Positions 1-31,238 of a stretch of 64,000 nt of DNA are shown piece by piece. Below the pieces are notes generated by a model. The model did no database searches. It was not told the DNA's origin and was given only the letters and a program-made list of their open reading frames with translations. Origin of the DNA: Eledone cirrhosa (Eukaryota). Numbering within the stretch: the stretch's first letter is position 1; each line of letters starts with the position of its first letter. The DNA lies in assembly GCA_964016885.1 (NCBI GenBank), contig OZ024740.1:21080001-21144000 (forward strand). The letters run 5' to 3'. The position numbers were made by a program, and so were the translations under genes.

Positions 1-2508
1 TCCTTCTTTCAATGTGATATTATCAGACAGTATATCTTGGACTGCATTAGACAATGTACCATTCCTTCGTTCAAGGTGATATTATCAGACAGTATATCTT
101 GGACTACACTAGACAATGTACCATTCCTTCTTTCAAGGTGATATTATCAGACAGTATATCTTGGACTAAATTAGACAATGTACCATTCCTTCTTTCAATG
201 TCATATTATCAAACAGTATATCTTGGACTTCATTAGACAATATACCATTCCTTCTTTCAATGTGATATTATCAGACAGTATATCTTGGACTACATTAGAC
301 ATTGTACCATTCCTTCTTTCAAGGTGATATTAACAGACAGTATATCTTGGACTACATTAGACAATGTACCATTCCTTCTTTCAAGGTGATATTATCAGAC
401 AGTATATCTTGGACTACATTAGACAATGTACCATTCCTTCTTTCAAGGTGATATTATCAGACAGTATATCTTGGACTACATTAGACAATGTACCATTCCT
501 TCTTTCAATGTTATATTATCAGACAGTATATCTTCAACTACATTAGACAATATACCATTCCTTCTTTCAATGTGATATTATCAGACAGTATATCTTGGAC
601 AACATTAGACAATGTACCATTCTTTCTTTCAAGGTGATATTATCAGACATTATATCTTGGACTACAATAGACAATGTACCATTCCTACTTTCAATGTGAT
701 ATTATCAGACAGTATATCTTTGACTACATTAGACAATGCACCATTCCTTCTTTCAATGTGATATTATCAGACAGTATATCATGGACTACATTATAAAATG
801 TACCATTCCTTCTTTCAATGTTATATTATCAGACTGTATATCTTGGACTACATTAGACAATATACCATTCCTTCTTTCAATGTGATATTATCAGACAGTA
901 TATCTTGGACTACATTAGACAATGTACCATTCCTTCTTTCAATGTGATATTATCAGACAGTATATCTTGGACTACATTATACAATGTACCATTCCTTCTT
1001 TCAATGTTATATTATCAGACTGTATATCTTGGACTACATTAGACAATATACCATTCCTTCTTTCAATGTGATATTATCAGACAGTATATCTTGGACTACA
1101 TTAGACAATGTATCGTTCCTTCTTTCAATGTGATATTATCAGACAGTATACCTTGCACTACATTAGACAATGTACCATTCTTTCTTTCAAGGTGATATTA
1201 TCAGACAGTATATCTTGGACTACATTAGACAATGTACCATTCCTTCTTTCAATGTGATATTATCAGACAGTATAACTTTGACTACATTAGACAAAGTACC
1301 GTTCCTTCTTTCAATGTGATATTATCAGACAGTATATCTTGGACTACATTAGACAATGTACCATTCCTTCTTTCAAGGTGATATTATCAGACAGTATATC
1401 TTGGACTACATTAGACGATGTACCGTTCCTTCTTTCAATGTGATATTATCAGACAGTATATCTTGGACAACATTAGACAATGTACCATTCTTTCTTTCAA
1501 GGTGATATTATCATACAGTATATCTTGGACTACAATAGACAATGTACCATTCCTACTTTCAATGTGATATTATCAGACAGTATATCTTGGACTACATTAG
1601 AGATTGTACCATTCCTTCTTTCCATGTGATATTATCAGACAGTATATCATGGACTACATTATACAATGTACCATTCCTTCTTTCAATGTTATAATATCAG
1701 ACTGTATATCTTGGCCTACAGTAGACAATATACCATTCCTTCTTTCAATGTGATATTATCAGACAGTATATCTTGGACTACATTAGACAATGTACCATTC
1801 CTTCTTTCAATGTGATATTATCAGACAGTATATCTTGGACTACATTAGACAATGTACCATTCCTTCTTTCAATGGGATATTATCAGACAGTATATCTTGG
1901 ACTACATTAAACAATGTACCATTCCTTCTTTCAAGGTGATATTATCAGACAGTATATCTTGGACTACATTAGACAATGTACCATTCCTTCTTTCAACGTC
2001 ATATTATCAGACAGTATATCTTCGACTACGTTAGACAATGTACCATTCCTTCTTTCAATGTGATATTATCAGACAGTATATCATGGACTACATTATACAA
2101 TGTACCATTCCTTCTTTCAATGTTATATTATCAGACTGTATATCTTGGACTACATTAGACAATATACCATTCCTTCTTTCAATGTGATATTATCAGACAG
2201 TATATCTTGGACTACATTAGACAATGTACCATTCCTTCTTTCAATGTGATATTATCAGACAGTATATTTTGGACTACATTAGACAATGTACCATTCCTTC
2301 TTTCAATGGGATATTATCAGACTGTATATCTTGGACTACATTAGACAATGTACTATTCCTTCTTTCAAGGTGATATTATCAGACAGTATATCTTGGACTA
2401 CATTAGGCAATGTACCATTCCTTCTTTCAATGTGATATTATCAGACAGTGTATCTTGGACTACATTAGACAATGTACCATTCCTTCTGTCAATGTGATAT
2501 TATCAGAC

Positions 2509-2595
2509 TGTCTAATGTAGTCCAAGATATACTGTCTGATAATATCACATTGAAAGAAGGAATGGTACATTGTCTAATGTAGTCCAAGATATACT
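2509..2595 (-). repeat. 87-bp inverted satellite segment #1 (TGTCT junction)
   Basis: TGTCTAATGTAGTCCAAGATATACTGTCTGATAATATCACATTGAAAGAAGGAATGGTACATTGTCTAATGTAGTCCAAGATATACT is the exact reverse complement of monomer positions 38-62 plus 1-62. Confidence 0.98.
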
Positions 2596-4802
2596 ATGTA
2601 CCATTCCTTCTTTCAATGTCATATTATCAGACAGTATATCTTCGACTACATTAGACAATGTACCATTCCTTCTTTCAATGTGATATTATCAAACAGTATA
2701 TCTTGGACTACATTAGACAATGTACCATTCCTTCTTTCAAGGTGATATTATCAGACAGTATATCTTGGACTACATTAGACAATGTACCATTCCTTCTTTC
2801 AATGTTATATTATCAGACAGTATATCTTCAACTACATTAGACAATATACCATTCCTTCTTTCAATGTGATATTATCAGACAGTATATCTTGGACAACATT
2901 AGACAATGTACCATTCTTTCTTTCAAGGTGATATTATCAGACATTATATCTTGGACTACAATAGACAATGTACCATTCCTACTTTCAATGTGATATTATC
3001 AGACAGTATATCTTTGACTACATTAGACAATGCACCATTCCTTCTTTCAATGTGATATTATCAGACAGTATATCATGGACTACATTATAAAATGTACCAT
3101 TCCTTCTTTCAATGTTATATTATCAGACTGTATATCTTGGACTACATTAGACAATATACCATTCCTTCTTTCAATGTGATATTATCAGACAGTATATCTT
3201 GGACTACATTAGACAATGTACCATTCCTTCTTTCAATGTGATATTATCAGACAGTATATCTTGGACTACATTATACAATGTACCATTCCTTCTTTCAATG
3301 TTATATTATCAGACTGTATATCTTGGACTACATTAGACAATATACCATTCCTTCTTTCAATGTGATATTATCAGACAGTATATCTTGGACTACATTAGAC
3401 AATGTATCGTTCCTTCTTTCAATGTGATATTATCAGACAGTATACCTTGCACTACATTAGACAATGTACCATTCTTTCTTTCAAGGTGATATTATCAGAC
3501 AGTATATCTTGGACTACATTAGACAATGTACCATTCCTTCTTTCAATGTGATATTATCAGACAGTATAACTTTGACTACATTAGACAAAGTACCGTTCCT
3601 TCTTTCAATGTGATATTATCAGACAGTATATCTTGGACTACATTAGACAATGTACCATTCCTTCTTTCAAGGTGATATTATCAGACAGTATATCTTGGAC
3701 TACATTAGACGATGTACCGTTCCTTCTTTCAATGTGATATTATCAGACAGTATATCTTGGACAACATTAGACAATGTACCATTCTTTCTTTCAAGGTGAT
3801 ATTATCATACAGTATATCTTGGACTACAATAGACAATGTACCATTCCTACTTTCAATGTGATATTATCAGACAGTATATCTTGGACTACATTAGAGATTG
3901 TACCATTCCTTCTTTCCATGTGATATTATCAGACAGTATATCATGGACTACATTATACAATGTACCATTCCTTCTTTCAATGTTATAATATCAGACTGTA
4001 TATCTTGGACTACAGTAGACAATATACCATTCCTTCTTTCAATGTGATATTATCAGACAGTATATCTTGGACTACTTTAGACAATGTACCATTCCTTCTT
4101 TCAATGTGATATTATCAGACAGTATATCTTGGACTACATTAGACAATGTACCATTCCTTCTTTCAATGGGATATTATCAGACAGTATATCTTGGACTACA
4201 TTAAACAATGTACCATTCCTTCTTTCAAGGTGATATTATCAGACAGTATATCTTGGACTACATTAGACAATGTACCATTCCTTCTTTCAACGTCATATTA
4301 TCAGACAGTATATCTTCGACTACGTTAGACAATGTACCATTCCTTCTTTCAATGTGATATTATCAGACAGTATATCATGGACTACATTATACAATGTACC
4401 ATTCCTTCTTTCAATGTTATATTATCAGACTGTATATCTTGGACTACATTAGACAATATACCATTCCTTCTTTCAATGTGATATTATCAGACAGTATATC
4501 TTGGACTACATTAGACAATGTACCATTCCTTCTTTCAATGTGATATTATCAGACAGTATATTTTGGACTACATTAGACAATGTACCATTCCTTCTTTCAA
4601 TGGGATATTATCAGACTGTATATCTTGGACTACATTAGACAATGTACTATTCCTTCTTTCAAGGTGATATTATCAGACAGTATATCTTGGACTACATTAG
4701 GCAATGTACCATTCCTTCTTTCAATGTGATATTATCAGACAGTGTATCTTGGACTACATTAGACAATGTACCATTCCTTCTGTCAATGTGATATTATCAG
4801 AC

Positions 4803-4889
4803 TGTCTAATGTAGTCCAAGATATACTGTCTGATAATATCACATTGAAAGAAGGAATGGTACATTGTCTAATGTAGTCCAAGATATACT
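4803..4889 (-). repeat. 87-bp inverted segment #2 (TGTCT)
   Basis: Same reverse-complement segment and breakpoints as #1. Confidence 0.97.
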
Positions 4890-7096
4890 ATGTACCATTC
4901 CTTCTTTCAATGTCATATTATCAGACAGTATATCTTCGACTACATTAGACAATGTACCATTCCTTCTTTCAATGTGATATTATCAAACAGTATATCTTGG
5001 ACTACATTAGACAATGTACCATTCCTTCTTTCAAGGTGATATTATCAGACAGTATATCTTGGACTACATTAGACAATGTACCATTCCTTCTTTCAATGTT
5101 ATATTATCAGACAGTATATCTTCAACTACATTAGACAATATACCATTCCTTCTTTCAATGTGATATTATCAGACAGTATATCTTGGACAACATTAGACAA
5201 TGTACCATTCTTTCTTTCAAGGTGATATTATCAGACATTATATCTTGGACTACAATAGACAATGTACCATTCCTACTTTCAATGTGATATTATCAGACAG
5301 TATATCTTTGACTACATTAGACAATGCACCATTCCTTCTTTCAATGTGATATTATCAGACAGTATATCATGGACTACATTATAAAATGTACCATTCCTTC
5401 TTTCAATGTTATATTATCAGACTGTATATCTTGGACTACATTAGACAATATACCATTCCTTCTTTCAATGTGATATTATCAGACAGTATATCTTGGACTA
5501 CATTAGACAATGTACCATTCCTTCTTTCAATGTGATATTATCAGACAGTATATCTTGGACTACATTATACAATGTACCATTCCTTCTTTCAATGTTATAT
5601 TATCAGACTGTATATCTTGGACTACATTAGACAATATACCATTCCTTCTTTCAATGTGATATTATCAGACAGTATATCTTGGACTACATTAGACAATGTA
5701 TCGTTCCTTCTTTCAATGTGATATTATCAGACAGTATACCTTGCACTACATTAGACAATGTACCATTCTTTCTTTCAAGGTGATATTATCAGACAGTATA
5801 TCTTGGACTACATTAGACAATGTACCATTCCTTCTTTCAATGTGATATTATCAGACAGTATAACTTTGACTACATTAGACAAAGTACCGTTCCTTCTTTC
5901 AATGTGATATTATCAGACAGTATATCTTGGACTACATTAGACAATGTACCATTCCTTCTTTCAAGGTGATATTATCAGACAGTATATCTTGGACTACATT
6001 AGACGATGTACCGTTCCTTCTTTCAATGTGATATTATCAGACAGTATATCTTGGACAACATTAGACAATGTACCATTCTTTCTTTCAAGGTGATATTATC
6101 ATACAGTATATCTTGGACTACAATAGACAATGTACCATTCCTACTTTCAATGTGATATTATCAGACAGTATATCTTGGACTACATTAGAGATTGTACCAT
6201 TCCTTCTTTCCATGTGATATTATCAGACAGTATATCATGGACTACATTATACAATGTACCATTCCTTCTTTCAATGTTATAATATCAGACTGTATATCTT
6301 GGACTACAGTAGACAATATACCATCCCTTCTTTCAATGTGATATTATCAGACAGTATATCTTGGACTACATTAGACAATGTACCATTCCTTCTTTCAATG
6401 TGATATTATCAGACAGTATATCTTGGACTACATTAGACAATGTACCATTCCTTCTTTCAATGGGATATTATCAGACAGTATATCTTGGACTACATTAAAC
6501 AATGTACCATTCCTTCTTTCAAGGTGATATTATCAGACAGTATATCTTGGACTACATTAGACAATGTACCATTCCTTCTTTCAACGTCATATTATCAGAC
6601 AGTATATCTTCGACTACGTTAGACAATGTACCATTCCTTCTTTCAATGTGATATTATCAGACAGTATATCATGGACTACATTATACAATGTACCATTCCT
6701 TCTTTCAATGTTATATTATCAGACTGTATATCTTGGACTACATTAGACAATATACCATTCCTTCTTTCAATGTGATATTATCAGACAGTATATCTTGGAC
6801 TACATTAGACAATGTACCATTCCTTCTTTCAATGTGATATTATCAGACAGTATATTTTGGACTACATTAGACAATGTACCATTCCTTCTTTCAATGGGAT
6901 ATTATCAGACTGTATATCTTGGACTACATTAGACAATGTACTATTCCTTCTTTCAAGGTGATATTATCAGACAGTATATCTTGGACTACATTAGGCAATG
7001 TACCATTCCTTCTTTCAATGTGATATTATCAGACAGTGTATCTTGGACTACATTAGACAATGTACCATTCCTTCTGTCAATGTGATATTATCAGAC

Positions 7097-7183
7097 TGTC
7101 TAATGTAGTCCAAGATATACTGTCTGATAATATCACATTGAAAGAAGGAATGGTACATTGTCTAATGTAGTCCAAGATATACT
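7097..7183 (-). repeat. 87-bp inverted segment #3 (TGTCT)
   Basis: Same as #1. Confidence 0.97.
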
Positions 7184-9700
7184 ATGTACCATTCCTTCTT
7201 TCAATGTCATATTATCAGACAGTATATCTTCGACTACATTAGACAATGTACCATTCCTTCTTTCAATGTGATATTATCAAACAGTATATCTTGGACTACA
7301 TTAGACAATGTATCGTTCCTTCTTTCAATGTGATATTATCAGACAGTATACCTTGGACTACATTAGACAATGTACCATTCCTTCTTTCAATGTGATATTA
7401 TCAGACAGTATATCTTGGACTGCATTAGACAATGTACCTTTCCTTCGTTCAAGGTGATATTATCAGACAGTATATCTTGGACTACACTAGACAATGTACC
7501 ATTCCTTCTTTCAAGGTGATATTATCAAACAGTATATCTTGGACTAAATTAGACAATGTACCATTCCTTCTTTCAATGTCATATTATCAAACAGTATATC
7601 TTGGACTTCATTAGACAATATACCATTCCTTCTTTCAATGTGATATTATCAGACAGTATATCTCGGACTACCTTAGACAATGTACCATTCCTACTTTCAA
7701 TGTGATATTATCAGACAGTATATCTTGGACTACATTAGACAATGTACCATTCCTTCTTTCAAGGTGATATTATCAGACAGTATATCTTGGACTACATTAG
7801 ACAATGTATCGTTCCTTCTTTTAATGTGATATTATCAGACAGTATATCTTGGACTACATTAGACAATGTACCATTCCTTCTTTCAATGTGATATTATCAG
7901 ACAGTATATCTTGGACTACATTAGACAATGTACCATTCCTTCTTTCAATGGGATATTAGCAGACAGTATATCTTGGACTACATTAGACAATATACCATTC
8001 CTTCTTTCAATATGATATTATCAGACAGTATATCTTGGACTACATTAGACAATGTACCATTCCTTCTTTCAATCGGATATTATCAGACAGTATATCTTGG
8101 ACTACATTAGACAATATACCATTCCTTCTTTCAATGTGATATTATCAGACAATATATCTTGGACTACATTAGACAATGTACCATTTCTTCCTTCAATGTT
8201 ATATTATCAGACAGTATATCTTGGACTACATTAGACAATGTTCCATTCCTTCTTTCAATGTGATATTATCAGACAGTATATCTTGGACTACATTAGACAA
8301 TGTACCATTCCTTCTTTCAAGGTGATATTATCAGACAGTATATCTTGGACTACATTAGACAATGTACCATTCCTTCTTTCAATGTTATATTATCAGACAG
8401 TATATCTTCGACTACATTAGACAATATACCATTCCTTCTTTCAATGTGATATTATCAGACAGTATATCTTGGACAACATTAGACAATGTACCATTCTTTC
8501 TTTCAAGGTGATATTATCAGACAGTATATCTTGGACTACAATAGACAATGTACCATTCCTACTTTCAATGTGATATTATCAGACAGTACATCTTTGACTA
8601 CATTAGACAATGTACCATTCCTTCTTTCAATGTGATATTATCAGACAGTATATCATGGACTACATTATAAAATGTACCATTCCTTCTTTCAATGTTATAT
8701 TATCAGACTGTATATCTTGGACTACATTAGACAATATACCATTCCTTCTTTCAATTTGATATTATCAGACAGTATATCTTGGACTACATTAGACAATGTA
8801 TCGTTCCTTCTTTCAATGTGATATTATCAGACAGTATACCTTGGACTACATTAGACAATGTACCATTCTTTCTTTCAAGGTGATATTATCAGACAGTATA
8901 TCTTGGACTACATTAGACAATGTACCATTCCTTCTTTCAATGTGATATTATCGGACAGTATAACTTTGACTACATTAGACAAAGTACCATTCCTTCTTTC
9001 AATGTGATATTATCAGACAGTATATCTTGGACTACATTAGACAATGTACCATTCCTTCTTTCAATGGGATATTATCAGACAGTATATCTTGGACTACATT
9101 AAACAATGTACCATTCCTTCTTTCAAGGTGATATTATCAGACAGTATATCTTGGACTACATTGGACAATGTACCATTCCTTCTTTCAACGTCATATTATC
9201 AGACAGTATATCTTCGACTACGTTAGACAATGTACCATTCCTTCTTTCAATGTGATATTATCAGACAGTATATCATGGACTACATTATACAATGTACCAT
9301 TCCTTCTTTCAATGTTATATTATCAGACTGTATATCTTGGACTACATTAGACAATATACCATTCCTTCTTTCAATGTGATATTATCAGACAGTATATCTT
9401 GGACTACATTAGACAATGTACCATTCCTTCTTTCAATGTGATATTATCAGACAGTATATTTTGGACTACATTAGACAATGTACCATTCCTTCTTTCAATG
9501 GGATATTATCAGACAGTATATCTTGGACTACATTAGACAATGTACTATTCCTTCTTTCAAGGTGATATTATCAGACAGTATATCTTGGACTACATTAGAC
9601 AATGTACCATTCCTTCTTTCAATGTGATATTATCAGACAGTGTATCTTGGACTACGTTAGACAATGTACCATTCCTTCTGTCAATGTGATATTATCAGAC

Positions 9701-9787
9701 TGTCTAATGTAGTCCACGATATACTGTCTGATAATATCACATTGATAGAAGGAATGGTACATTGTCTAATGTAGTCCAAGATATACT
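9701..9787 (-). repeat. 87-bp inverted segment #4 (TGTCT; internal variants CCACGAT, ATTGATAG)
   Basis: Same breakpoints, two internal substitutions. Confidence 0.97.
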
Positions 9788-11374
9788 ATGTACCATTCTT
9801 TCTTTCAATGTCATATTATCAGACAGTATATCTTCGACTACATTAGACAATGTACCATTCCTTCTTTCAATGTGATATTATCAAACAGTATATCTTGGAC
9901 TACATTAGACAATGTATCGTTCCTTCTTTCAATGTGATATTATCAGACAGTATACCTTGGACTACATTAGACACTGTACCATTCCTTCTTTCAATGTGAT
10001 ATTATCAGACAGTATATCTTGGACTGCATTAGACAATGTACCTTTCCTTCGTTCAAGGTGATATTATCAGACAGTATATCTTGGACTACACTAGACAATG
10101 TACCATTCCTTCTTTCAAGGTGATATTATCAAACAGTATATCTTGGACTAAATTAGACAATGTTCCATTCCTTCTTTCAATGTCATATTATCAGACAGTA
10201 TATCTTGGACTTCATTAGACAATATACCATTCCTTCTTTCAATGTGATATTATCAGACAGTATATCTTGGACTACCTTAGACAATGTACCATTCCTTCTT
10301 TCATGGTGATATTATCAGACAGTATATCTTGGACTACATTAGACAATGTACCATTCCTTCTTTCAAGGTGATATTATCAGACAGTATATCTTGGACTACA
10401 TTAGACAATGTATCGTTCCTTCTTTTAATGTGATATTATCAGACAGTATATCTTGGACTACATTAGACAATGTACCATTCCTTCTTTCAATGTGATATTA
10501 TCAGACAGTATATCTTGGACTACATTAGACAATGTACCATTCCTTCTTTCAATGGGATATTAGCAGACAGTATATCTTGGACTACATTAGACAATATACC
10601 ATTCCTTCTTTCAATATGATATTATCAGACAGTATATCTTGGACTACATTAGACAATGTACCATTCCTTCTTTCAATCGGATATTATCAGACAGTATATC
10701 TTGGACTACATTAGACAATATACCATTCCTTCTTTCAATGTGATATTATCAGACAATATATCTTGGACTACATTAGACAATGTACCATTTCTTCTTTCAA
10801 TGGGATATTAGCAGACAGTATATCTTGGACTACATTAGACAATATACCATTCCTTCTTTCAATATGATATTATCAGACAGTATATCTTGGACTACATTAG
10901 ACAATGTACCATTCCTTCTTTCAATCGGATATTATCAGACAGTATATCTTGGACTACATTAGACAATATACCATTCCTTCTTTCAATGTGATATTATCAG
11001 ACAATATATCTTGGACTACATTAGACAATGTACCATTTCTTCTTTCAATGTTATATTATCAGACAGTATATCTTGGACTACATTAGACAATGTTCCATTC
11101 CTTCTTTCAATGTGATATTATCAGACAGTATATATTGGACTACATTAGACAATGTACCATTCCTTCTTTCAATGGGATATTATCAGACAGTATATCTTGG
11201 ACTACATTAGACAATGTACCATTCCTTCTTTCAAGGTGATATTATCAGACAGTATATCTTGGACTACATTAGACAATGTACCATTCCTTCTTTCAATGTG
11301 ATATTATCAGACAGTGTATCTTGGACTCCATTAGACAATGTACCATTCCTTCTATCAATGTGATATTATCAGAC

Positions 11375-11461
11375 TGTCTAATGTAGTCCAAGATATACTG
11401 TCTGATAATATCACATTGAAAGAAGGAATGGTACATTGTCTAATGTAGTCCAAGTTATACT
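11375..11461 (-). repeat. 87-bp inverted segment #5 (TGTCT; CAAGTTATAC variant)
   Basis: Same breakpoints. Confidence 0.97.
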
Positions 11462-12862
11462 ATGTACCATTCCTTCTTTCAATGTCATATTATCAGACAG
11501 TATATCTTCGACTACATTAGACAATGTACCATTCCTTCTTTCAATGTGATATTATCAAACAGTATATCTTGGACTACATTAGACAATGTATCGTTCCTTC
11601 TTTCAATGTGATATTATCAGACAGTATATCTTGGACTACATTAGACAATGTACCATTTCTTCTTTCAATGTGATATTATCAGACAGTATATCTTGGACTG
11701 CATTAGACAATGTACCATTCCTTCCTTCAAGGTGATATTATCAGACAGTATATCTTGAACTACACTAGACAATGAACCATTCCTTCTTTCAAGGTGATAT
11801 TATCAGACAGTATATCTTGGACTAAATTAGACAATGTACCATTCCTTCTTTCAATGTCATATTATCAGACAGTATATCTTGGACTTCATTAGACAATATA
11901 CCATTCCTTCTTTCAATGTGATATTATCAGACAGTATATCTTGGACTACATTAGACAATGTACCATTCCTTCTTTCAAGGTGATATTATCAGACAGTATA
12001 TCTTGGACTACATTAGACAATGTACCATTCCTTCTTTCAAGGTGATATTATCAGACAGTATATCTTGGACTACATTAGACAATGTACCATTCCTTATTTC
12101 AAGGTGATATTATCAGACAGTATATCTTGGACTACATTAGACAATGTACCATTCCTTCTTTCAATGTTATATTATCAGAGAGTATATCTTCGACTACATT
12201 AGACAATATACCATTCCTTCTTTCAATGTGATATTATCAGACAGCATATCTTGGACAACATTCGACAATGTACCATTCTTTCTTTCAAGGTGATATTATC
12301 AGACAGTATATCTTGGACTACAATAGACAATGTACCATTCCTACTTTCAATGTGATATTAACAGACAGTATATCTTGGACTACATTAGACAATGTACCAT
12401 TCCTTCTTTCAATGTGATATTATCAGACAGTATATCATGGACTACATTATACAATGTACCATTCCTTCTTTCAATGTTATATTATCAGACTGTATATCTT
12501 GGACTACATTAGACAATATACCATTCCTTCTTTCAATGTGATATTATCAGACAGTATATCTTGGACTACATTAGACAATGTACCATTCCTTCTTTCAATG
12601 TGATATTATCAGACAGTATATCTTGGAATACATTAGACAATGTACCATTCCTTCTTTCAATGTGATATTATCAGACAGTATATCTTGGACTACATTAGAC
12701 AATGTACCATTCCTTCTTTCAATGGGATATTATCAGACAGTATATCTTGGAATACATTAGACAATGTACCATTTCTTCTTTCAAGTTGATATTATCAGAC
12801 AGTATATCTTGGACTACATTAGACAATGTACCATTCCTTCTGTCAATGTGATATTATCAGAC

Positions 12863-12949
12863 TGCCTAATGTAGTCCAAGATATACTGTCTGATAATATC
12901 ACATTGAAAGAAGGAATGGTACATTGTCTAATGTAGTCCAAGATATACT
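12863..12949 (-). repeat. 87-bp inverted segment #6 (TGCCT)
   Basis: Same breakpoints, junction allele TGCCT. Confidence 0.97.
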
Positions 12950-14846
12950 ATGTACCATTCCTTCTTTCAATGTCATATTATCAGACAGTATATCTTCGAC
13001 TACAATAGACAATGTACCATTCCTACTTTCAATGTGATATTAACAGACAGTATATCTTGGACTACATTAGACAATGTACCATTCCTTCTTTCAATGTGAT
13101 ATTATCAGACAGTATATCATGGACTACATTATACAATGTACCATTCCTTCTTTCAATGTTATATTATCAGACTGTATATCTTGGACTACATTAGACAATA
13201 TACCATTCCTTCTTTCAATGTGATATTATCAGACAGTATATCTTGGACTACATTAGACAATGTACCATTCCTTCTTTCAATGTGATATTATCAGACAGTA
13301 TATCTTGGACTACATTATACAATGTACCATTCCTTCTTTCAATGTTATATTATCAGACTGTATATCTTGGACTACATTAGACAATATACCATTCCTTCTT
13401 TCAATGTGATATTATCAGACAGTATATCTTGGACTACATTAGACAATGTATCGTTCCTTCTTTCAATGTGATATTATCAGACAGTATACCTTGCACTACA
13501 TTAGACAATGTACCATTCTTTCTTTCAAGGTGATATTATCAGACAGTATATCTTGGACTACATTAGACAATGTACCATTCCTTCTTTCAATGTGATATTA
13601 TCAGACAGTATAACTTTGACTACATTAGACAAAGTACCGTTCCTTCTTTCAATGTGATATTATCAGACAGTATATCTTGGACTACATTAGACAATGTACC
13701 ATTCCTTCTTTCAAGGTGATATTATCAGACAGTATATCTTGGACTACATTAGACGATGTACCGTTCCTTCTTTCAATGTGATATTATCAGACAGTATATC
13801 TTGGACAACATTAGACAATGTACCATTCTTTCTTTCAAGGTGATATTATCATACAGTATATCTTGGACTACAATAGACAATGTACCATTCCTACTTTCAA
13901 TGTGATATTATCAGACAGTATATCTTGGACTACATTAGAGATTGTACCATTCCTTCTTTCCATGTGATATTATCAGACAGTATATCATGGACTACATTAT
14001 ACAATGTACCATTCCTTCTTTCAATGTTATAATATCAGACTGTATATCTTGGACTACAGTAGACAATATACCATTCCTTCTTTCAATGTGATATTATCAG
14101 ACAGTATATCTTGGACTACATTAGACAATGTACCATTCCTTCTTTCAATGTGATATTATCAGACAGTATATCTTGGACTACATTAGACAATGTACCATTC
14201 CTTCTTTCAATGGGATATTATCAGACAGTATATCTTGGACTACATTAAACAATGTACCATTCCTTCTTTCAAGGTGATATTATCAGACAGTATATCTTGG
14301 ACTACATTAGACAATGTACCATTCCTTCTTTCAACGTCATATTATCAGACAGTATATCTTCGACTACGTTAGACAATGTACCATTCCTTCTTTCAATGTG
14401 ATATTATCAGACAGTATATCATGGACTACATTATACAATGTACCATTCCTTCTTTCAATGTTATATTATCAGACTGTATATCTTGGACTACATTAGACAA
14501 TATACCATTCCTTCTTTCAATGTGATATTATCAGACAGTATATCTTGGACTACATTAGACAATGTACCATTCCTTCTTTCAATGTGATATTATCAGACAG
14601 TATATTTTGGACTACATTAGACAATGTACCATTCCTTCTTTCAATGGGATATTATCAGACTGTATATCTTGGACTACATTAGACAATGTACTATTCCTTC
14701 TTTCAAGGTGATATTATCAGACAGTATATCTTGGACTACATTAGGCAATGTACCATTCCTTCTTTCAATGTGATATTATCAGACAGTGTATCTTGGACTA
14801 CATTAGACAATGTACCATTCCTTCTGTCAATGTGATATTATCAGAC

Positions 14847-14933
14847 TGTCTAATGTAGTCCAAGATATACTGTCTGATAATATCACATTGAAAGAAGGAA
14901 TGGTACATTGTCTAATGTAGTCCAAGATATACT
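14847..14933 (-). repeat. 87-bp inverted segment #7 (TGTCT)
   Basis: Same as #1. Confidence 0.97.
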
Positions 14934-17140
14934 ATGTACCATTCCTTCTTTCAATGTCATATTATCAGACAGTATATCTTCGACTACATTAGACAATGTA
15001 CCATTCCTTCTTTCAATGTGATATTATCAAACAGTATATCTTGGACTACATTAGACAATGTACCATTCCTTCTTTCAAGGTGATATTATCAGACAGTATA
15101 TCTTGGACTACATTAGACAATGTACCATTCCTTCTTTCAATGTTATATTATCAGACAGTATATCTTCAACTACATTAGACAATATACCATTCCTTCTTTC
15201 AATGTGATATTATCAGACAGTATATCTTGGACAACATTAGACAATGTACCATTCTTTCTTTCAAGGTGATATTATCAGACATTATATCTTGGACTACAAT
15301 AGACAATGTACCATTCCTACTTTCAATGTGATATTATCAGACAGTATATCTTTGACTACATTAGACAATGCACCATTCCTTCTTTCAATGTGATATTATC
15401 AGACAGTATATCATGGACTACATTATAAAATGTACCATTCCTTCTTTCAATGTTATATTATCAGACTGTATATCTTGGACTACATTAGACAATATACCAT
15501 TCCTTCTTTCAATGTGATATTATCAGACAGTATATCTTGGACTACATTAGACAATGTACCATTCCTTCTTTCAATGTGATATTATCAGACAGTATATCTT
15601 GGACTACATTATACAATGTACCATTCCTTCTTTCAATGTTATATTATCAGACTGTATATCTTGGACTACATTAGACAATATACCATTCCTTCTTTCAATG
15701 TGATATTATCAGACAGTATATCTTGGACTACATTAGACAATGTATCGTTCCTTCTTTCAATGTGACATTATCAGACAGTATACCTTGCACTACATTAGAC
15801 AATGTACCATTCTTTCTTTCAAGGTGATATTATCAGACAGTATATCTTGGACTACATTAGACAATGTACCATTCCTTCTTTCAATGTGATATTATCAGAC
15901 AGTATAACTTTGACTACATTAGACAAAGTACCGTTCCTTCTTTCAATGTGATATTATCAGACAGTATATCTTGGACTACATTAGACAATGTACCATTCCT
16001 TCTTTCAAGGTGATATTATCAGACAGTATATCTTGGACTACATTAGACGATGTACCGTTCCTTCTTTCAATGTGATATTATCAGACAGTATATCTTGGAC
16101 AACATTAGACAATGTACCATTCTTTCTTTCAAGGTGATATTATCATACAGTATATCTTGGACTACAATAGACAATGTACCATTCCTACTTTCAATGTGAT
16201 ATTATCAGACAGTATATCTTGGACTACATTAGAGATTGTACCATTCCTTCTTTCCATGTGATATTATCAGACAGTATATCATGGACTACATTATACAATG
16301 TACCATTCCTTCTTTCAATGTTATAATATCAGACTGTATATCTTGGACTACAGTAGACAATATACCATCCCTTCTTTCAATGTGATATTATCAGACAGTA
16401 TATCTTGGACTACATTAGACAATGTACCATTCCTTCTTTCAATGTGATATTATCAGACAGTATATCTTGGACTACATTAGACAATGTACCATTCCTTCTT
16501 TCAATGGGATATTATCAGACAGTATATCTTGGACTACATTAAACAATGTACCATTCCTTCTTTCAAGGTGATATTATCAGACAGTATATCTTGGACTACA
16601 TTAGACAATGTACCATTCCTTCTTTCAACGTCATATTATCAGACAGTATATCTTCGACTACGTTAGACAATGTACCATTCCTTCTTTCAATGTGATATTA
16701 TCAGACAGTATATCATGGACTACATTATACAATGTACCATTCCTTCTTTCAATGTTATATTATCAGACTGTATATCTTGGACTACATTAGACAATATACC
16801 ATTCCTTCTTTCAATGTGATATTATCAGACAGTATATCTTGGACTACATTAGACAATGTACCATTCCTTCTTTCAATGTGATATTATCAGACAGTATATT
16901 TTGGACTACATTAGACAATGTACCATTCCTTCTTTCAATGGGATATTATCAGACTGTATATCTTGGACTACATTAGACAATGTACTATTCCTTCTTTCAA
17001 GGTGATATTATCAGACAGTATATCTTGGACTACATTAGGCAATGTACCATTCCTTCTTTCAATGTGATATTATCAGACAGTGTATCTTGGACTACATTAG
17101 ACAATGTACCATTCCTTCTGTCAATGTGATATTATCAGAC

Positions 17141-17227
17141 TGTCTAATGTAGTCCAAGATATACTGTCTGATAATATCACATTGAAAGAAGGAATGGTAC
17201 ATTGTCTAATGTAGTCCAAGATATACT
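17141..17227 (-). repeat. 87-bp inverted segment #8 (TGTCT)
   Basis: Same as #1. Confidence 0.97.
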
Positions 17228-19744
17228 ATGTACCATTCCTTCTTTCAATGTCATATTATCAGACAGTATATCTTCGACTACATTAGACAATGTACCATTC
17301 CTTCTTTCAATGTGATATTATCAAACAGTATATCTTGGACTACATTAGACAATGTATCGTTCCTTCTTTCAATGTGATATTATCAGACAGTATACCTTGG
17401 ACTACATTAGACAATGTACCATTCCTTCTTTCAATGTGATATTATCAGACAGTATATCTTGGACTGCATTAGACAATGTACCTTTCCTTCGTTCAAGGTG
17501 ATATTATCAGACAGTATATCTTGGACTACACTAGACAATGTACCATTCCTTCTTTCAAGGTGATATTATCAAACAGTATATCTTGGACTAAATTAGACAA
17601 TGTACCATTCCTTCTTTCAATGTCATATTATCAAACAGTATATCTTGGACTTCATTAGACAATATACCATTCCTTCTTTCAATGTGATATTATCAGACAG
17701 TATATCTCGGACTACCTTAGACAATGTACCATTCCTACTTTCAATGTGATATTATCAGACAGTATATCTTGGACTACATTAGACAATGTACCATTCCTTC
17801 TTTCAAGGTGATATTATCAGACAGTATATCTTGGACTACATTAGACAATGTATCGTTCCTTCTTTTAATGTGATATTATCAGACAGTATATCTTGGACTA
17901 CATTAGACAATGTACCATTCCTTCTTTCAATGTGATATTATCAGACAGTATATCTTGGACTACATTAGACAATGTACCATTCCTTCTTTCAATGGGATAT
18001 TAGCAGACAGTATATCTTGGACTACATTAGACAATATACCATTCCTTCTTTCAATATGATATTATCAGACAGTATATCTTGGACTACATTAGACAATGTA
18101 CCATTCCTTCTTTCAATCGGATATTATCAGACAGTATATCTTGGACTACATTAGACAATATACCATTCCTTCTTTCAATGTGATATTATCAGACAATATA
18201 TCTTGGACTACATTAGACAATGTACCATTTCTTCCTTCAATGTTATATTATCAGACAGTATAACTTGGACTACATTAGACAATGTTCCATTCCTTCTTTC
18301 AATGTGATATTATCAGACAGTATATCTTGGACTACATTAGACAATGTACCATTCCTTCTTTCAAGGTGATATTATCAGACAGTATATCTTGGACTACATT
18401 AGACAATGTACCATTCCTTCTTTCAATGTTATATTATCAGACAGTATATCTTCGACTACATTAGACAATATACCATTCCTTCTTTCAATGTGATATTATC
18501 AGACAGTATATCTTGGACAACATTAGACAATGTACCATTCTTTCTTTCAAGGTGATATTATCAGACAGTATATCTTGGACTACAATAGACAATGTACCAT
18601 TCCTACTTTCAATGTGATATTATCAGACAGTACATCTTTGACTACATTAGACAATGTACCATTCCTTCTTTCAATGTGATATTATCAGACAGTATATCAT
18701 GGACTACATTATAAAATGTACCATTCCTTCTTTCAATGTTATATTATCAGACTGTATATCTTGGACTACATTAGACAATATACCATTCCTTCTTTCAATT
18801 TGATATTATCAGACAGTATATCTTGGACTACATTAGACAATGTATCGTTCCTTCTTTCAATGTGATATTATCAGACAGTATACCTTGGACTACATTAGAC
18901 AATGTACCATTCTTTCTTTCAAGGTGATATTATCAGACAGTATATCTTGGACTACATTAGACAATGTACCATTCCTTCTTTCAATGTGATATTATCGGAC
19001 AGTATAACTTTGACTACATTAGACAAAGTACCATTCCTTCTTTCAATGTGATATTATCAGACAGTATATCTTGGACTACATTAGACAATGTACCATTCCT
19101 TCTTTCAATGGGATATTATCAGACAGTATATCTTGGACTACATTAAACAATGTACCATTCCTTCTTTCAAGGTGATATTATCAGACAGTATATCTTGGAC
19201 TACATTGGACAATGTACCATTCCTTCTTTCAACGTCATATTATCAGACAGTATATCTTCGACTACGTTAGACAATGTACCATTCCTTCTTTCAATGTGAT
19301 ATTATCAGACAGTATATCATGGACTACATTATACAATGTACCATTCCTTCTTTCAATGTTATATTATCAGACTGTATATCTTGGACTACATTAGACAATA
19401 TACCATTCCTTCTTTCAATGTGATATTATCAGACAGTATATCTTGGACTACATTAGACAATGTACCATTCCTTCTTTCAATGTGATATTATCAGACAGTA
19501 TATTTTGGACTACATTAGACAATGTACCATTCCTTCTTTCAATGGGATATTATCAGACAGTATATCTTGGACTACATTAGACAATGTACTATTCCTTCTT
19601 TCAAGGTGATATTATCAGACAGTATATCTTGGACTACATTAGACAATGTACCATTCCTTCTTTCAATGTGATATTATCAGACAGTGTATCTTGGACTACA
19701 TTAGACAATGTACCATTCCTTCTGTCAATGTGATATTATCAGAC

Positions 19745-19831
19745 TGTCTAATGTAGTCCACGATATACTGTCTGATAATATCACATTGATAGAAGGAATG
19801 GTACATTGTCTAATGTAGTCCAAGATATACT
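19745..19831 (-). repeat. 87-bp inverted segment #9 (TGTCT; CCACGAT, ATTGATAG)
   Basis: Duplicate of #4 at +10,044. Confidence 0.97.
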
Positions 19832-21418
19832 ATGTACCATTCTTTCTTTCAATGTCATATTATCAGACAGTATATCTTCGACTACATTAGACAATGTACC
19901 ATTCCTTCTTTCAATGTGATATTATCAAACAGTATATCTTGGACTACATTAGACAATGTATCGTTCCTTCTTTCAATGTGATATTATCAGACAGTATACC
20001 TTGGACTACATTAGACAATGTACCATTCCTTCTTTCAATGTGATATTATCAGACAGTATATCTTGGACTGCATTAGACAATGTACCTTTCCTTCGTTCAA
20101 GGTGATATTATCAGACAGTATATCTTGGACTACACTAGACAATGTACCATTCCTTCTTTCAAGGTGATATTATCAAACAGTATATCTTGGACTAAATTAG
20201 ACAATGTTCCATTCCTTCTTTCAATGTCATATTATCAGACAGTATATCTTGGACTTCATTAGACAATATACCATTCCTTCTTTCAATGTGATATTATCAG
20301 ACAGTATATCTTGGACTACCTTAGACAATGTACCATTCCTTCTTTCATGGTGATATTATCAGACAGTATATCTTGGACTACATTAGACAATGTACCATTC
20401 CTTCTTTCAAGGTGATATTATCAGACAGTATATCTTGGACTACATTAGACAATGTATCGTTCCTTCTTTTAATGTGATATTATCAGACAGTATATCTTGG
20501 ACTACATTAGACAATGTACCATTCCTTCTTTCAATGTGATATTATCAGACAGTATATCTTGGACTACATTAGACAATGTACCATTCCTTCTTTCAATGGG
20601 ATATTAGCAGACAGTATATCTTGGACTACATTAGACAATATACCATTCCTTCTTTCAATATGATATTATCAGACAGTATATCTTGGACTACATTAGACAA
20701 TGTACCATTCCTTCTTTCAATCGGATATTATCAGACAGTATATCTTGGACTACATTAGACAATATACCATTCCTTCTTTCAATGTGATATTATCAGACAA
20801 TATATCTTGGACTACATTAGACAATGTACCATTTCTTCTTTCAATGGGATATTAGCAGACAGTATATCTTGGACTACATTAGACAATATACCATTCCTTC
20901 TTTCAATATGATATTATCAGACAGTATATCTTGGACTACATTAGACAATGTACCATTCCTTCTTTCAATCGGATATTATCAGACAGTATATCTTGGACTA
21001 CATTAGACAATATACCATTCCTTCTTTCAATGTGATATTATCAGACAATATATCTTGGACTACATTAGACAATGTACCATTTCTTCTTTCAATGTTATAT
21101 TATCAGACAGTATATCTTGGACTACATTAGACAATGTTCCATTCCTTCTTTCAATGTGATATTATCAGACAGTATATATTGGACTACATTAGACAATGTA
21201 CCATTCCTTCTTTCAATGGGATATTATCAGACAGTATATCTTGGACTACATTAGACAATGTACCATTCCTTCTTTCAAGGTGATATTATCAGACAGTATA
21301 TCTTGGACTACATTAGACAATGTACCATTCCTTCTTTCAATGTGATATTATCAGACAGTGTATCTTGGACTCCATTAGACAATGTACCATTCCTTCTATC
21401 AATGTGATATTATCAGAC

Positions 21419-21505
21419 TGTCTAATGTAGTCCAAGATATACTGTCTGATAATATCACATTGAAAGAAGGAATGGTACATTGTCTAATGTAGTCCAAGTT
21501 ATACT
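21419..21505 (-). repeat. 87-bp inverted segment #10 (TGTCT; CAAGTTATAC)
   Basis: Duplicate of #5 at +10,044. Confidence 0.97.
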
Positions 21506-22906
21506 ATGTACCATTCCTTCTTTCAATGTCATATTATCAGACAGTATATCTTCGACTACATTAGACAATGTACCATTCCTTCTTTCAATGTGATATTATC
21601 AAACAGTATATCTTGGACTACATTAGACAATGTATCGTTCCTTCTTTCAATGTGATATTATCAGACAGTATATCTTGGACTACATTAGACAATGTACCAT
21701 TTCTTCTTTCAATGTGATATTATCAGACAGTATATCTTGGACTGCATTAGACAATGTACCATTCCTTCCTTCAAGGTGATATTATCAGACAGTATATCTT
21801 GAACTACACTAGACAATGAACCATTCCTTCTTTCAAGGTGATATTATCAGACAGTATATCTTGGACTAAATTAGACAATGTACCATTCCTTCTTTCAATG
21901 TCATATTATCAGACAGTATATCTTGGACTTCATTAGACAATATACCATTCCTTCTTTCAATGTGATATTATCAGACAGTATATCTTGGACTACATTAGAC
22001 AATGTACCATTCCTTCTTTCAAGGTGATATTATCAGACAGTATATCTTGGACTACATTAGACAATGTACCATTCCTTCTTTCAAGGTGATATTATCAGAC
22101 AGTATATCTTGGACTACATTAGACAATGTACCATTCCTTATTTCAAGGTGATATTATCAGACAGTATATCTTGGACTACATTAGACAATGTACCATTCCT
22201 TCTTTCAATGTTATATTATCAGAGAGTATATCTTCGACTACATTAGACAATATACCATTCCTTCTTTCAATGTGATATTATCAGACAGTATATCTTGGAC
22301 AACATTCGACAATGTACCATTCTTTCTTTCAAGGTGATATTATCAGACAGTATATCTTGGACTACAATAGACAATGTACCATTCCTACTTTCAATGTGAT
22401 ATTAACAGACAGTATATCTTGGACTACATTAGACAATGTACCATTCCTTTTTTCAATGTGATATTATCAGACAGTATATCATGGACTACATTATACAATG
22501 TACCATTCCTTCTTTCAATGTTATATTATCAGACTGTATATCTTGGACTACATTAGACAATATACCATTCCTTCTTTCAATGTGATATTATCAGACAGTA
22601 TATCTTGGACTACATTAGACAATGTACCATTCCTTCTTTCAATGTGATATTATCAGACAGTATATCTTGGACTACATTAGACAATGTACCATTCCTTCTT
22701 TCAATGTGATATTATCAGACAGTATATCTTGGACTACATTAGACAATGTACCATTCCTTCTTTCAATGGGATATTATCAGACAGTATATCTTGGAATACA
22801 TTAGACAATGTACCATTTCTTCTTTCAAGTTGATATTATCAGACAGTATATCTTGGACTACATTAGACAATGTACCATTCCTTCTGTCAATGTGATATTA
22901 TCAGAC

Positions 22907-22993
22907 TGCCTAATGTAGTCCAAGATATACTGTCTGATAATATCACATTGAAAGAAGGAATGGTACATTGTCTAATGTAGTCCAAGATATACT
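22907..22993 (-). repeat. 87-bp inverted segment #11 (TGCCT)
   Basis: Duplicate of #6 at +10,044. Confidence 0.97.
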
Positions 22994-23365
22994 ATGTACC
23001 ATTCCTTCTTTCAATGTCATATTATCAGACAGTATATCTTCGACTACAATAGACAATGTACCATTCCTACTTTCAATGTGATATTAACAGACAGTATATC
23101 TTGGACTACATTAGACAATGTACCATTCCTTCTTTCAATGTGATATTATCAGACAGTATATCATGGACTACATTATACAATGTACCATTCCTTCTTTCAA
23201 TGTTATATTATCAGACTGTATATCTTGGACTACATTAGACAATATACCATTCCTTCTTTCAATGTGATATTATCAGACAGTATATCTTGGACTACATTAG
23301 ACAATGTACCATTCCTTCTTTCAATGTGATATTATCAGACAGTATATCTTGGACTTCATTAGACA

Positions 23366-26300: not shown

Positions 26301-27330
26301 TGTGATATTATCAGACAGTATATCTTGGACAACATTAGACAATGTACCATTCTTTCTTTCAAGTTGATATTATCAGACAGTATATCTTGGACTACAATAG
26401 ACAATGTACCATTCCTACTTTCAATGTGATATTATCAGACAGTATATCTTGGACTACATTAGACAATGTACCATTCCTTCTTTCAATGTGATATTATCAG
26501 ACAGTATATCATGGACTACATTATACAATGTACCATTCCTTCTTTCAATGTTATATTATCAGACTGTATATCTTGGACTACATTAGACAATATACCATTC
26601 CTTCTTTCAATGTGATATTATCAGACAGTATATCATGGACTACATTAGACAATGTAGCATTCCTTCTTTCAATGTGATATTATCAGACAGTATATCTTGG
26701 ACTACATTATACAATGTACCATTCCTTCTTTCAATGTTATATTATCAGACTGTATATCTTGGACTACATTAGACAATATACCATTCCTTCTTTCAATGTG
26801 ATATTATCAGACAGTATATCTTGGACTACATTAGAAAATGTATCGTTCCTTCTTTCAATGTGATATTATCAGACAGTATACCTTGGACTACATTAGACAA
26901 TATACCATTCCTTCTTTCAATGTGATATTATCAGACAGTATATATTGGACTACATTAGACAATGTACCATTCCTTCTTTCAAGGTGATATTATCAGACAG
27001 TATATCTTGGACTACATTAGACAATGTACCATTCCTTCTATCAAAGTGATATTATCAGACAGTATATCTTGGACTACATTAGACAATGTACCATTCCTTC
27101 TTTCAAGGTGATATTATCAGACAGTATATCTTGGACTACATTAGACAATGTACCATTCCTTCTTTCAATGTTATATTATCAGACAGTATATCTTCGACTA
27201 CATTAGACAATATACCATTCCTTCTTTCAATGTGATATTATCAGACAGTATATCTTGGACAACATTAGACAATGTACCATTCTTTCTTTCAAGGTGATAT
27301 TATCAGACAGTATATCTTGGACTACAATAG
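23366..27330 (+). repeat. Higher-order duplication, 39-monomer (2,418 bp) offset
   Basis: Variant series repeats 23366/25784, 23986/26404, 24606/27024 (CATTTGAC, TAAATTCGAC, GTAGCATT, TAGAAAATG). Boundaries approximate. Confidence 0.85.
25449..25535 (-). repeat. 87-bp inverted segment #12 (TGCCT)
   Basis: Same breakpoints. Confidence 0.97.
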
Positions 27331-27865
27331 ACAATGTACCATTCCTACTTATATGTGATATTAACAGACAGTATATCTTGGACTACATTAGACAATGTAC
27401 CATTCCTTCTTTCAATGTGATATTATCAGACAGTATATCTTGGACTACATTAGACAATGTACCATTCCTTCTTTCAATGTGATATTATCAGACAGTATAT
27501 CATGGACTACATTATACAATGTACCATTCCTTCTTTCAATGTTATATTATCAGACTGTATATCTTGGACTACATTAGACAATATACCATTCCTTCTTTCA
27601 ATGTGATATTATCAGACAGTATATCTTGGACTACATTAGACAATGTACCATTCCTTCTTTCAATGTGATATTATCAGACAGTATATCTTGGACTACATTA
27701 GACAATGTACCATTCCTTCTTTCAATGGGATATTATCAGACAGTATAACTTGGACTACATTAGACAATGTACCATTTCTTCTTTCAAGTTGATATTATCA
27801 GACAGTATATCTTGGACTACATTAGACAATGTACCATTCCTTCTTTCAATGTGATATTATCAGAC

Positions 27866-27952
27866 TGCGTAATGTAGTCCAAGATATACTGTCTGATAAT
27901 ATCACATTGAAAGAAGGAATGGTACATTGTCTAATGTAGTCCAAGATATACT
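27866..27952 (-). repeat. 87-bp inverted segment #13 (TGCGT)
   Basis: Same breakpoints, first TGCGT allele in the window. Confidence 0.97.
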
Positions 27953-29477: not shown

Positions 29478-29564
29478 TGCGTAATGTAGTCCAAGATATA
29501 CTGTCTGATAATATCACATTGAAAGAAGGAATGGTACATTGTCTAATGTAGTCCAAGATATACT
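29478..29564 (-). repeat. 87-bp inverted segment #14 (TGCGT)
   Basis: Same breakpoints. Confidence 0.97.
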
Positions 29565-31151: not shown

Positions 31152-31238
31152 TGTCTAATGTAGTCCAAGATATACTGTCTGATAATATCACATTGAAAGA
31201 AGGAATGGTACATTGTCTAATGTAGTCCAAGTTATACT
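31152..31238 (-). repeat. 87-bp inverted segment #15 (TGTCT; CAAGTTATAC)
   Basis: Same breakpoints. Confidence 0.97.

Follow-up and report, generated by a model that had tools for sequence, protein, structure and literature searches.

An 87-bp in-place inversion in 120 copies along one 62-bp satellite array, a probable passenger of block duplication

The satellite array and its inverted segment

The window, which is the whole 64,000-bp stretch of DNA analysed here, lies within a head-to-tail satellite with a 62-bp period and contains 1,030 monomer copies, differing from the consensus by 2.2 mismatches each. The whole array extends over 352,808 bp (~5,690 monomers) at one locus, G000:C1:20932175-21284983. 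Monomers are numbered so that position 1 corresponds to position 2472 of the window, where the following features were found.

1..64000, + strand: 62-bp tandem satellite, 32% GC, a segment of the larger array
2385..2471, + strand: upstream 87-bp arm of ordinary forward monomers, with 2 mismatches, both G-U pairs in + strand RNA
2472..2508, + strand: upstream 37-nt loop, monomer positions 1-37, with the marker 17G at 2488; inner end of an alternative 62-bp stem
2509..2595, - strand: in-place inversion of 87 bp that agrees with the consensus (0 mismatches) when read as the reverse complement of monomer positions 38-62 plus 1-62; includes a 25-bp direct repeat
2596..2632, + strand: downstream 37-nt loop, monomer positions 1-37, with the marker 25C at 2620; inner end of an alternative 62-bp stem
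2633..2719, + strand: downstream 87-bp arm of ordinary forward monomers, with 2 mismatches
2509..4802, + strand: higher-order unit of 2,294 bp (37 monomers) with one inversion inside, 99.9% identical to the next unit, 4803-7096
4803..24890, + strand: tandem duplication of 10,044 bp (162 monomers), halves 98.9% identical, five inversions per half
Within 4803..63972, - strand: 33 further inversion copies with 0-3 substitutions each, starting at 4803, 7097, 9701, 11375, 12863, 14847, 17141, 19745, 21419, 22907, 25449, 27866, 29478, 31152, 32454, 33446, 35987, 37908, 39582, 41008, 43426, 44108, 46464, 48138, 50494, 51734, 54090, 54772, 56197, 56817, 59484, 60724 and 63886

The multi-monomer blocks are more alike than single monomers, which confirms a higher-order repeat. 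Centromeric satellites are understood here as those that bind CENP-A and usually occur on many chromosomes. All 1,341 exact matches to a 43-mer of the satellite fall in this array, so that in this exact form it is not a genome-wide centromere repeat; diverged arrays may lie elsewhere. No account of this satellite was found among the papers listed by a literature search that covered few subscription journals. Each of four runs labelled as four other organisms (X3, X4, X5 and X7) yielded one 92-base contig of plain forward monomer at a depth of 6-24; these contigs contain no inversion junction, and none would be expected at this depth if the junction occurs in ~1% of monomers. The monomer in these runs may be library carry-over or a conserved low-copy relative, which the contigs do not distinguish. 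The RAD runs X13-X15, from other samples with the species label of run X1, gave 6, 6 and 4 reads, with 17G in none, too few for inference.

The inverted segment is an exact reverse complement placed with no net gain or loss, and the phase of the array does not change across 2509-2595 or across any of the 120 copies found in the array; a gain or loss of whole monomers at the inversion may also be compatible with this unchanged phase. The complementarity originally proposed between 2509-2595 and both 2385-2471 and 2633-2719 is borne out, 85 of the 87 positions pairing with either arm across loops of monomer positions 1-37. The same proposal spoke of two mutually exclusive hairpins, but there are actually four nearest ones, since 62-bp stems with 25-nt loops can also form between 2447-2508 and 2534-2595 and between 2509-2570 and 2596-2657, and branched forms that pair with both sides are possible as well. 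The symmetry of the geometry is real in that the two loops are equal. It carries no information, however, because the array period forces the loop to be 124 - 87, and equal loops were obtained in 6,510 of 6,510 simulated in-place inversions. Symmetry was thus rejected as a sign of design, being the arithmetic of any inversion of this kind. A short-read contig from run X1 matches the junction at 2478-2538 with 0 differences, so that the junction is not peculiar to the assembly; this contig extends 31 letters to one side of the junction and 30 to the other, which misses the bridging rule by one letter, and X1 is possibly the assembly's own source sample.

Distribution and descent of the inverted copies

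Of 122 reverse segments called, 120 stand in the same phase relation and have identical breakpoints, the other two being a separate patch of 29 bp and, beyond the array, a chance match of 12 bp. No reverse segment in the array is longer than 87 bp; there are no lengths of 87 + 62n and no mirror-type breakpoints. All 120 copies lie to the right of the first 83,044 bp, which have none and account for 83 of its 353 kb, or nearly a quarter. The inversion-bearing right part (~270 kb, or three quarters of the array) has copies in ten of ten 27-kb bins and is inverted over 3.9% of its length. The expected recurrence about every 1.9 kb agrees with the mean spacing of the 34 inversions in the window, 1,860 bp, but the spacing is irregular, ranging over 620-3,162 bp in the window and 558-8,802 bp in the array, and the interval does not apply to the inversion-free part. 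Across the array the coefficient of variation (CV) of the spacing is 0.68 and the minimum is 9 monomers. All 24 SNP-pair markers are less even (CV 0.79-2.46), and the inversion is also more evenly spaced than 26 of 27 single variants, the exception being the linked 25C.

The variants in and around the inversion point to common descent. Of the 119 full-length copies, 89 carry 17G in the upstream loop and 7 carry 17A there (96 of 119 together); among forward monomers 17G is found in only 10 of 5,378, whose neighbours are unrelated, and none of these ten represents an uninverted ancestral haplotype. In the downstream monomer, 25C accompanies 114 of 119 inversions, as against 281 of 5,259 forward monomers, and the variants inside the inverted segment are nested (none in 31 copies, 3C in 38, 3C+4G in 17 and 81T in 11; n = 119). 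Because these private variants are linked and the breakpoints identical, the 120 inversions are likely copies of one ancestral flip. The outside flanks of the breakpoints match at 4 of 12 positions and the terminal base inside is unmatched, so that they are not of the inverted-repeat-flanked type (PMC8755829); a 3-bp flank match would need the 38T variant, present in 5.7% of monomers, and misfits the right junction in 115 of 119 copies. The flip would have involved two breaks 87 bp apart and rejoining without loss or gain, in an end-joining-like manner, a step that we infer and that falls outside the usual micro-inversion models because the breakpoints have no flanking inverted repeats. Both breakpoints adjoin the 3' side of the monomer's only two AGAC motifs, as was noticed after the fact; a native 6-bp hairpin has one of these motifs as its loop.

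The AGAC motifs would also suit a site-specific process in which the same 87 bp flips repeatedly, and the 17G/A marker is indeed absent from 23 of 119 copies. Yet 25C is common to nearly all copies, and exchange beside an existing inversion would account for most of the 23, in which either the derived inner variants 3C+4G or the usual downstream haplotype is present. The lack of any inversion in 83 kb of the same monomer, as well as the missing lengths and mirror-type breakpoints, also argues against recurrence, which we regard as very improbable. Fold-back chimeras arising in sequencing or assembly are more improbable still. Satellite arrays are hard to assemble, and the copy number and order given here are those of the assembly, but chimeras would neither keep phase nor carry nested private variants. 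Moreover, the X1 junction contig has a depth of 365 against a summed 30,000-74,000 (0.5-1.2%); summed contig depth is a rough measure, and this share is close to that of 38 exact copies in ~5,690 monomers (0.7%).

It is quite probable that one 87-bp in-place flip gave rise to all 120 copies and spread as a neutral passenger of block duplication; the predicted hairpins would then be a by-product. Blocks of ~25-230 monomers would have been duplicated across the right-hand 270 kb, either through unequal exchange or through tandem duplication linked to replication. The array contains 227 exact duplicated runs of at least 500 bp, with lags of 26-228 monomers (5-95%). Three SNP-pair markers are confined to the same 270 kb, 25T48C with 126 copies, 12T22G with 184 and 3A52A with 106, each with 0 in the left part; their copy number is similar to that of the inversion and they are unlinked to it, only 3-6% lying within 5 monomers of one. 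In neutral duplication models with a mean block of 80-160 monomers, 26-94% of markers had a CV no higher than 0.68, as against only 0-3% with mean blocks of 10-30 monomers. The CV and the minimum spacing were reproduced jointly in 3-46% of cases even with long blocks. In these simulations the parameters were chosen by us and gene conversion was not included. The evenness is one point for a role of the hairpins, but it also arises in neutral models if the duplications are long.

Predicted folding and possible roles of the hairpins

Folded computationally as RNA, 2385-2719 is predicted to form a strong hairpin (-164.2 kcal/mol, z = -17.4, with 0 of 100 shuffles as good), while three inversion-free 335-nt pieces reach only -44 to -50 kcal/mol. 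The individual hairpins are predicted at -135 to -148 kcal/mol as RNA on both strands and at -86 to -89 kcal/mol as DNA. The array thus has the extended inverted repeat of a hairpin RNA, foldable by computation on one strand, and the suggestion that read-through would give hairpins with no need for antisense transcription is backed by this folding, in which either strand is predicted to form stems of ~87 bp that are ~95% paired. If read through, the right-hand 270 kb would yield about one 87-bp duplex per 2.3 kb, a predicted and incidental substrate of Dicer or ADAR. Loops of 25-37 nt disfavour cruciform extrusion, and because of this loop length cruciforms are less likely than single-strand hairpins. 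A search of two loci (L006 and L035) against Rfam returned 25 matches, every one to a miRNA family whose gathering score it did not reach; the L035 matches fall on the array's last inversion hairpin.

Selection on the stems was sought in several ways. The stems average 3.62 mismatches with the upstream arm and 4.44 with the downstream arm (n = 117 for each) as against 3.92 for random in-phase arms, so that arms better paired than the background were not found, and there is no trend over eight registers. One possible compensatory change, 87A with 38T in 3 of 4 copies, is probably one event. Private substitutions number 19 in the inverted segments plus arms (23.3 expected, P = 0.22) and 4 in the inverted segments alone (7.8 expected, P = 0.11), and the latter shortfall disappears when the context is defined more strictly (0.39 versus 0.37 per kb). 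The power of these tests is low, and they are blind to selection on the mere presence of a hairpin. No mutational footprint of the hairpins was seen in loops, arms or indels, and indels are not enriched close to inversions (3 of 44 versus 14.7% expected, P = 0.20).

Under one alternative, the array would be transcribed, its fold-backs diced, and the resulting small RNAs would silence the satellite and favour inversion-bearing blocks. The strong duplexes on both strands, a stem spanning the entire monomer, the occurrence in every right-hand bin as the most evenly spaced marker, and the absence of AATAAA from the + strand of the array would fit such a locus, and in flies tandem hairpin-RNA loci are known and arise de novo (PMC12697358). 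Against it stand the single origin, the lack of stem perfecting, the 83 kb free of inversions and the equally wide spread of unlinked SNP markers. Nor was a transcription unit identified in the flanks by Pfam and tRNA scans, which could miss short exons: of 543 ORFs in ~110 kb of flank, the 71 longest complex ones were scanned with Pfam and gave only non-LTR retrotransposon domains, and ARAGORN found 0 tRNA genes in four flank loci. The array may lie within an intron. A selected hairpin-RNA locus is thus improbable, and we give as little credence to the broader proposal that a chance micro-inversion made the satellite its own hairpin-RNA source. In that proposal the fold-back RNA, whether diced or ADAR-edited, would silence or stabilise the array, and inversion-bearing blocks would for this reason have been retained at a fairly even ~1 per 2.3 kb across 270 kb. 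Were this true, the 83 kb without inversions would serve as an internal control. A role at the level of DNA structure appears unlikely as well, though a shade less so; here hairpins or cruciforms would favour loading of centromere or heterochromatin proteins, or fork stalling would have expanded the right-hand 270 kb. The predicted DNA hairpins and the three-quarter share of the inversion-bearing part are in its favour, but the loop length, the confinement of the 43-mer to one locus and the lack of an excess of indels near inversions, or of substitutions in loops, are not. Satellite dyads have been proposed to act in this way in Tribolium, although the authors call their structures unproven (PMC13081366). 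The label of a self-encoded silencing-trigger design is not supported, given the arithmetic of the loops, the single event, the lack of stem perfecting and the inversion-free 83 of 353 kb, and the array by itself does not show a new silencing design.

Relation to known systems

The neutral passenger reading would make this a micro-inversion carried in a satellite higher-order repeat, with predicted hairpin potential. It offers a clean, traceable case of one structural mutation spreading through a satellite array, and the inversion is a marker that point mutation can hardly erase, useful for reconstructing array growth. The 83 kb without and the 270 kb with ~120 predicted hairpins form a natural experiment, as the roles proposed for satellite dyads, whether in small RNA, editing, chromatin or fragility, are open to testing at one locus. 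Among the papers listed by the literature search, which covered few subscription journals, none was found to describe one in-place micro-inversion that became amplified within a higher-order repeat.

Inverted segments inside satellites are described for Trichogramma brassicae (385 bp, with 80-bp inverted repeats), Tribolium brevicornis (1,061 bp) and Tribolium madens, whose TmSat2 has conserved inversion sites (PMC13081366). As here, an inverted piece was amplified within a larger unit, near-identical breakpoints recur in many copies, and the hairpins, with stems of 58-98 bp in those satellites, are predicted but unproven. Unlike them, the present inversion covers only 1.4 monomers exactly in place and affects ~1 of 36 monomers at a single locus, where the higher-order repeat is variable. 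Whole multi-kilobase subarrays switch direction on all chromosomes of T. madens (PMC13081366), which is not so here; this array, with no reverse segment above 87 bp, does not show the macro-dyad symmetry of the Tribolium type. The pericentromeric satellite of Hieracium alpinum, in which stochastic micro-inversions and block-type arrays of forward and reverse monomers are reported, likewise has both orientations in one array and repeated blocks holding both, but its monomers are of 21 bp, its blocks of ~650 bp include unrelated linkers, and the events were many (PMC11566620), whereas here there is no linker and one traceable event. The centromere elements of cichlids (PMC13652916) were set aside as a comparison, being 15-kb elements on another scale.

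In being short, exactly copied and the source of new inverted repeats and predicted stable hairpins as a by-product of mutation, the inverted segment resembles micro-inversions and short-range template switches; the 59 human-chimpanzee micro-inversions, however, are 17-33 nt long and all flanked by inverted repeats (PMC8755829, PMC7954356), and the present one is 87 bp, unflanked and later amplified. The array also resembles Drosophila hp-CG4068, with its 20 tandem hairpins, in having tandem inverted-repeat copies that could fold on a single-stranded transcript, yet the fly hpRNAs are defined by a primary transcript plus abundant 20-22-nt arm reads (PMC12697358), while the hairpins described here are predicted from the DNA sequence. 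Across animals, ADAR usually acts on long, near-perfect fold-backs that neighbouring inverted repeats form within one pre-mRNA, and octopods are a group with high hyper-editing (PMC5625713). The flanks of the present array may resemble an octopod genome in their SINEs. In its predicted fold-back form the array is like such substrates, and editing would, given transcription, be a rival fate to dicing.

The inversion and its predicted hairpins

The 62-bp satellite fills the entire window (1,030 copies, 32% GC). Counting monomer position 1 from window 2472, the segment 2509-2595 reverse-complements consensus positions 38-62 plus 1-62 without a mismatch, and the phase of the array is unchanged downstream. 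The inverted segment has two arms in the window:

2385-2471: upstream arm, pairing with 2509-2595 (2 mismatches, 37-nt loop)
2633-2719: downstream arm, pairing with 2509-2595 (2 mismatches, 37-nt loop)

The 87-bp complementarity across 37 nt on both sides, as put forward in the original prediction, is confirmed. The predicted RNA fold of the 335-nt region 2385-2719 reaches -164.2 kcal/mol (z -17.4), against -44 to -50 kcal/mol for three inversion-free comparison pieces. Four hairpins are nearest to this inversion: the two already claimed, with 87-bp stems and 37-nt loops (predicted at -148 and -135 as + strand RNA), and two that had been overlooked, with 62-bp stems and 25-nt loops (-101 and -92). 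Minus-strand scores resemble these values, and the same hairpins as DNA are predicted at -86 to -89 and -57 to -61. The claimed spacing of about 1.9 kb holds as a mean (1,860 bp for the 34 copies in the window) but needs correction for its spread of 620-3,162 bp.

A junction-spanning short-read contig of sequencing run X1, which may be the source sample, matches 2478-2538 exactly, with 31 and 30 letters flanking the junction, one below the bridging rule; it accounts for 0.5-1.2% of the summed depth, near the 0.7% that the assembly predicts. Runs X3, X4, X5 and X7, labelled as four other organisms, contain a 92-base plain-monomer contig of 95-99% likeness, either a conserved low-copy relative or carry-over.

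Extent of the array and origin of its inversions

The array was mapped from the window, at G000:C1:21080001-21144000, plus 200 kb fetched on each side, in a 443-Mb contig of the 3.0-Gb genome:

G000:C1:20,932,175-21,284,983 (contig OZ024740.1): satellite array, holding the whole window

All 1,341 exact genome matches to a satellite 43-mer lie inside it, none on the reverse strand, which makes it the single locus for this sequence, although diverged relatives may exist. No inversions were found in its first 83,044 bp; the remaining 269,764 bp carry 120 of identical geometry (119 of 87 bp, one of 25 bp), amounting to 3.9% of that part, with a mean spacing of 2,265 bp (range 558-8,802). The left 83 kb (20932175-21015218, loci L006-L014) has a different variant set and more indels (50 phase shifts, or 6.0 per 10 kb, versus 44, or 1.6 per 10 kb, on the right), so the array consists of two layers of different age.

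Judged from their variants, the inversion copies likely share one origin. The upstream loop carries 17G in 89 of 119 copies and 17A in 7; among 5,378 forward monomers only 10 have 17G, and their contexts are unrelated. The monomer after the inversion has 25C in 114/119 cases versus 281/5,259 elsewhere. Inner variants are nested (none in 31 of 119 copies, 3C in 38, 3C+4G in 17, 81T in 11, plus rarer ones), and the 31 copies lacking them occur at both ends of the inversion-bearing region. A 37-monomer unit and a 162-monomer block are duplicated in the window at 99.9% and 98.9% identity, respectively, and there are 227 exact duplicated runs of at least 500 bp, with lags of 26-228 monomers. SNP-pair markers unlinked to the inversion number 126, 184 and 106 copies in the right 270 kb and 0 in the left part. 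These unlinked markers thus stay within the inversion-bearing 270 kb, at copy numbers similar to that of the inversion, and the right part likely grew from a founder block, whose expansion would have carried an inversion present there by chance.

The flip itself probably arose through two breaks, inversion of the piece and clean rejoining. Both junctions connect formerly adjacent bases, in phase, to the inverted piece; two independent template switches, the rival explanation, would be expected to hit such junctions about once in 62 x 62, and we infer that the break model is simpler. No inverted repeats flank the breakpoints (4/12 matches), unlike the 59 micro-inversions in PMC8755829, all of which are so flanked. 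The monomer has two AGAC motifs, and each breakpoint falls at the 3' side of one of them, a post hoc association based on one event; the right-hand AGAC forms the loop in a native 6-bp hairpin.

Several copies depart from the common form. At G000:C1:21238929-21238953 (locus L030) the inversion measures 25 bp instead of 87, having lost exactly one period between its internal 25-bp direct repeats. At locus L034, a separate 29-30-bp inverted patch (G000:C1:21275586-21275614), with other breakpoints, a phase shift and small duplications around it, is a second, unamplified event, and in the copy at G000:C1:21277771-21277857 a cluster of some nine changes takes the place of positions 74-84, perhaps through a short template switch. 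Copies starting at window 44108, 46464, 48138 and 51734 end in A rather than T, with altered downstream context; 3/4 have 38T in the downstream monomer, the would-be pairing base in the downstream hairpin. This is probably one event, either an exchange that overran the junction by a single base or repair on a paired stem.

Symmetry, spacing and selection

Equal loops arose in 6,510/6,510 simulated inversions (lengths 20-124, every phase), because a period-62 array places the nearest full-length partners whole periods away on both sides, so that both loops equal 62k - L. The symmetry is not a design: any in-place inversion yields it.

The tests for selection (mismatches, substitutions, indels, spacing) all have low power. 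Random in-phase arms average 3.92 mismatches; those adjacent to an inversion carry 3.62 (upstream) and 4.44 (downstream), and the eight registers compared show no trend. Private substitutions number 19 versus 23.3 expected in inverted segments plus arms (P = 0.22) and 4 versus 7.8 in inverted segments alone (P = 0.11), where rates are equal under stricter context; indels were not found to cluster near inversions (3/44 versus 14.7% expected). What counts against a passenger is even spacing: no marker is spaced as evenly as the inversion, whose CV is 0.68, against 0.79-2.46 for 24 SNP-pair markers. An inversion, unlike a SNP, would not be erased by a short conversion tract. Neutral models with mean blocks of 80-160 monomers give CV <=0.68 in 26-94% of markers, and those with blocks of 10-30 monomers in 0-3%. 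As the median smallest lag observed among duplicated runs is 85 monomers, the even spacing is probably no evidence of selection. The most likely reading is that the micro-inversion is a passenger in a higher-order repeat, and we hold it with considerable confidence; the proposed self-encoded silencing trigger is unsupported, given the arithmetic of the symmetry, the likely single origin and arms no better matched than random.

Surroundings, possible function and known relatives

Flank ORFs showed only non-LTR retrotransposon domains (71/543 ORFs scanned). Such ORFs, with reverse transcriptase and some with endonuclease or zf-RVT, lie in loci L001, L002, L005, L035 and L038 (<=1,152 codons, <=60 kb from the array), and one on the + strand terminates about 9 kb upstream of the array. 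A short + strand element (L006, about 1875-2175), roughly 100 bp ahead of the first monomer, presumably resembles the tRNA-derived SINEs of octopods; neither ARAGORN nor Rfam found a tRNA in it.

Loops of 25-37 nt disfavour cruciform extrusion, and single-strand hairpins in exposed DNA seem more plausible than cruciforms; no mutational trace of hairpins was found in this array. If the array were read through, an 87-bp duplex roughly every 2.3 kb is predicted from either strand. In animals, ADAR usually acts on long fold-back duplexes of this sort (PMC5625713), and in flies Dicer acts on those of hpRNAs (PMC12697358). Stable hairpins are known as by-products of template switches (PMC7954356). 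A literature search on satellites with inversions found no description of this satellite. Amplified internal inversions are already known: they occur in a Hieracium satellite (PMC11566620) and, with conserved inversion sites, in Tribolium and Trichogramma satellites (PMC13081366).
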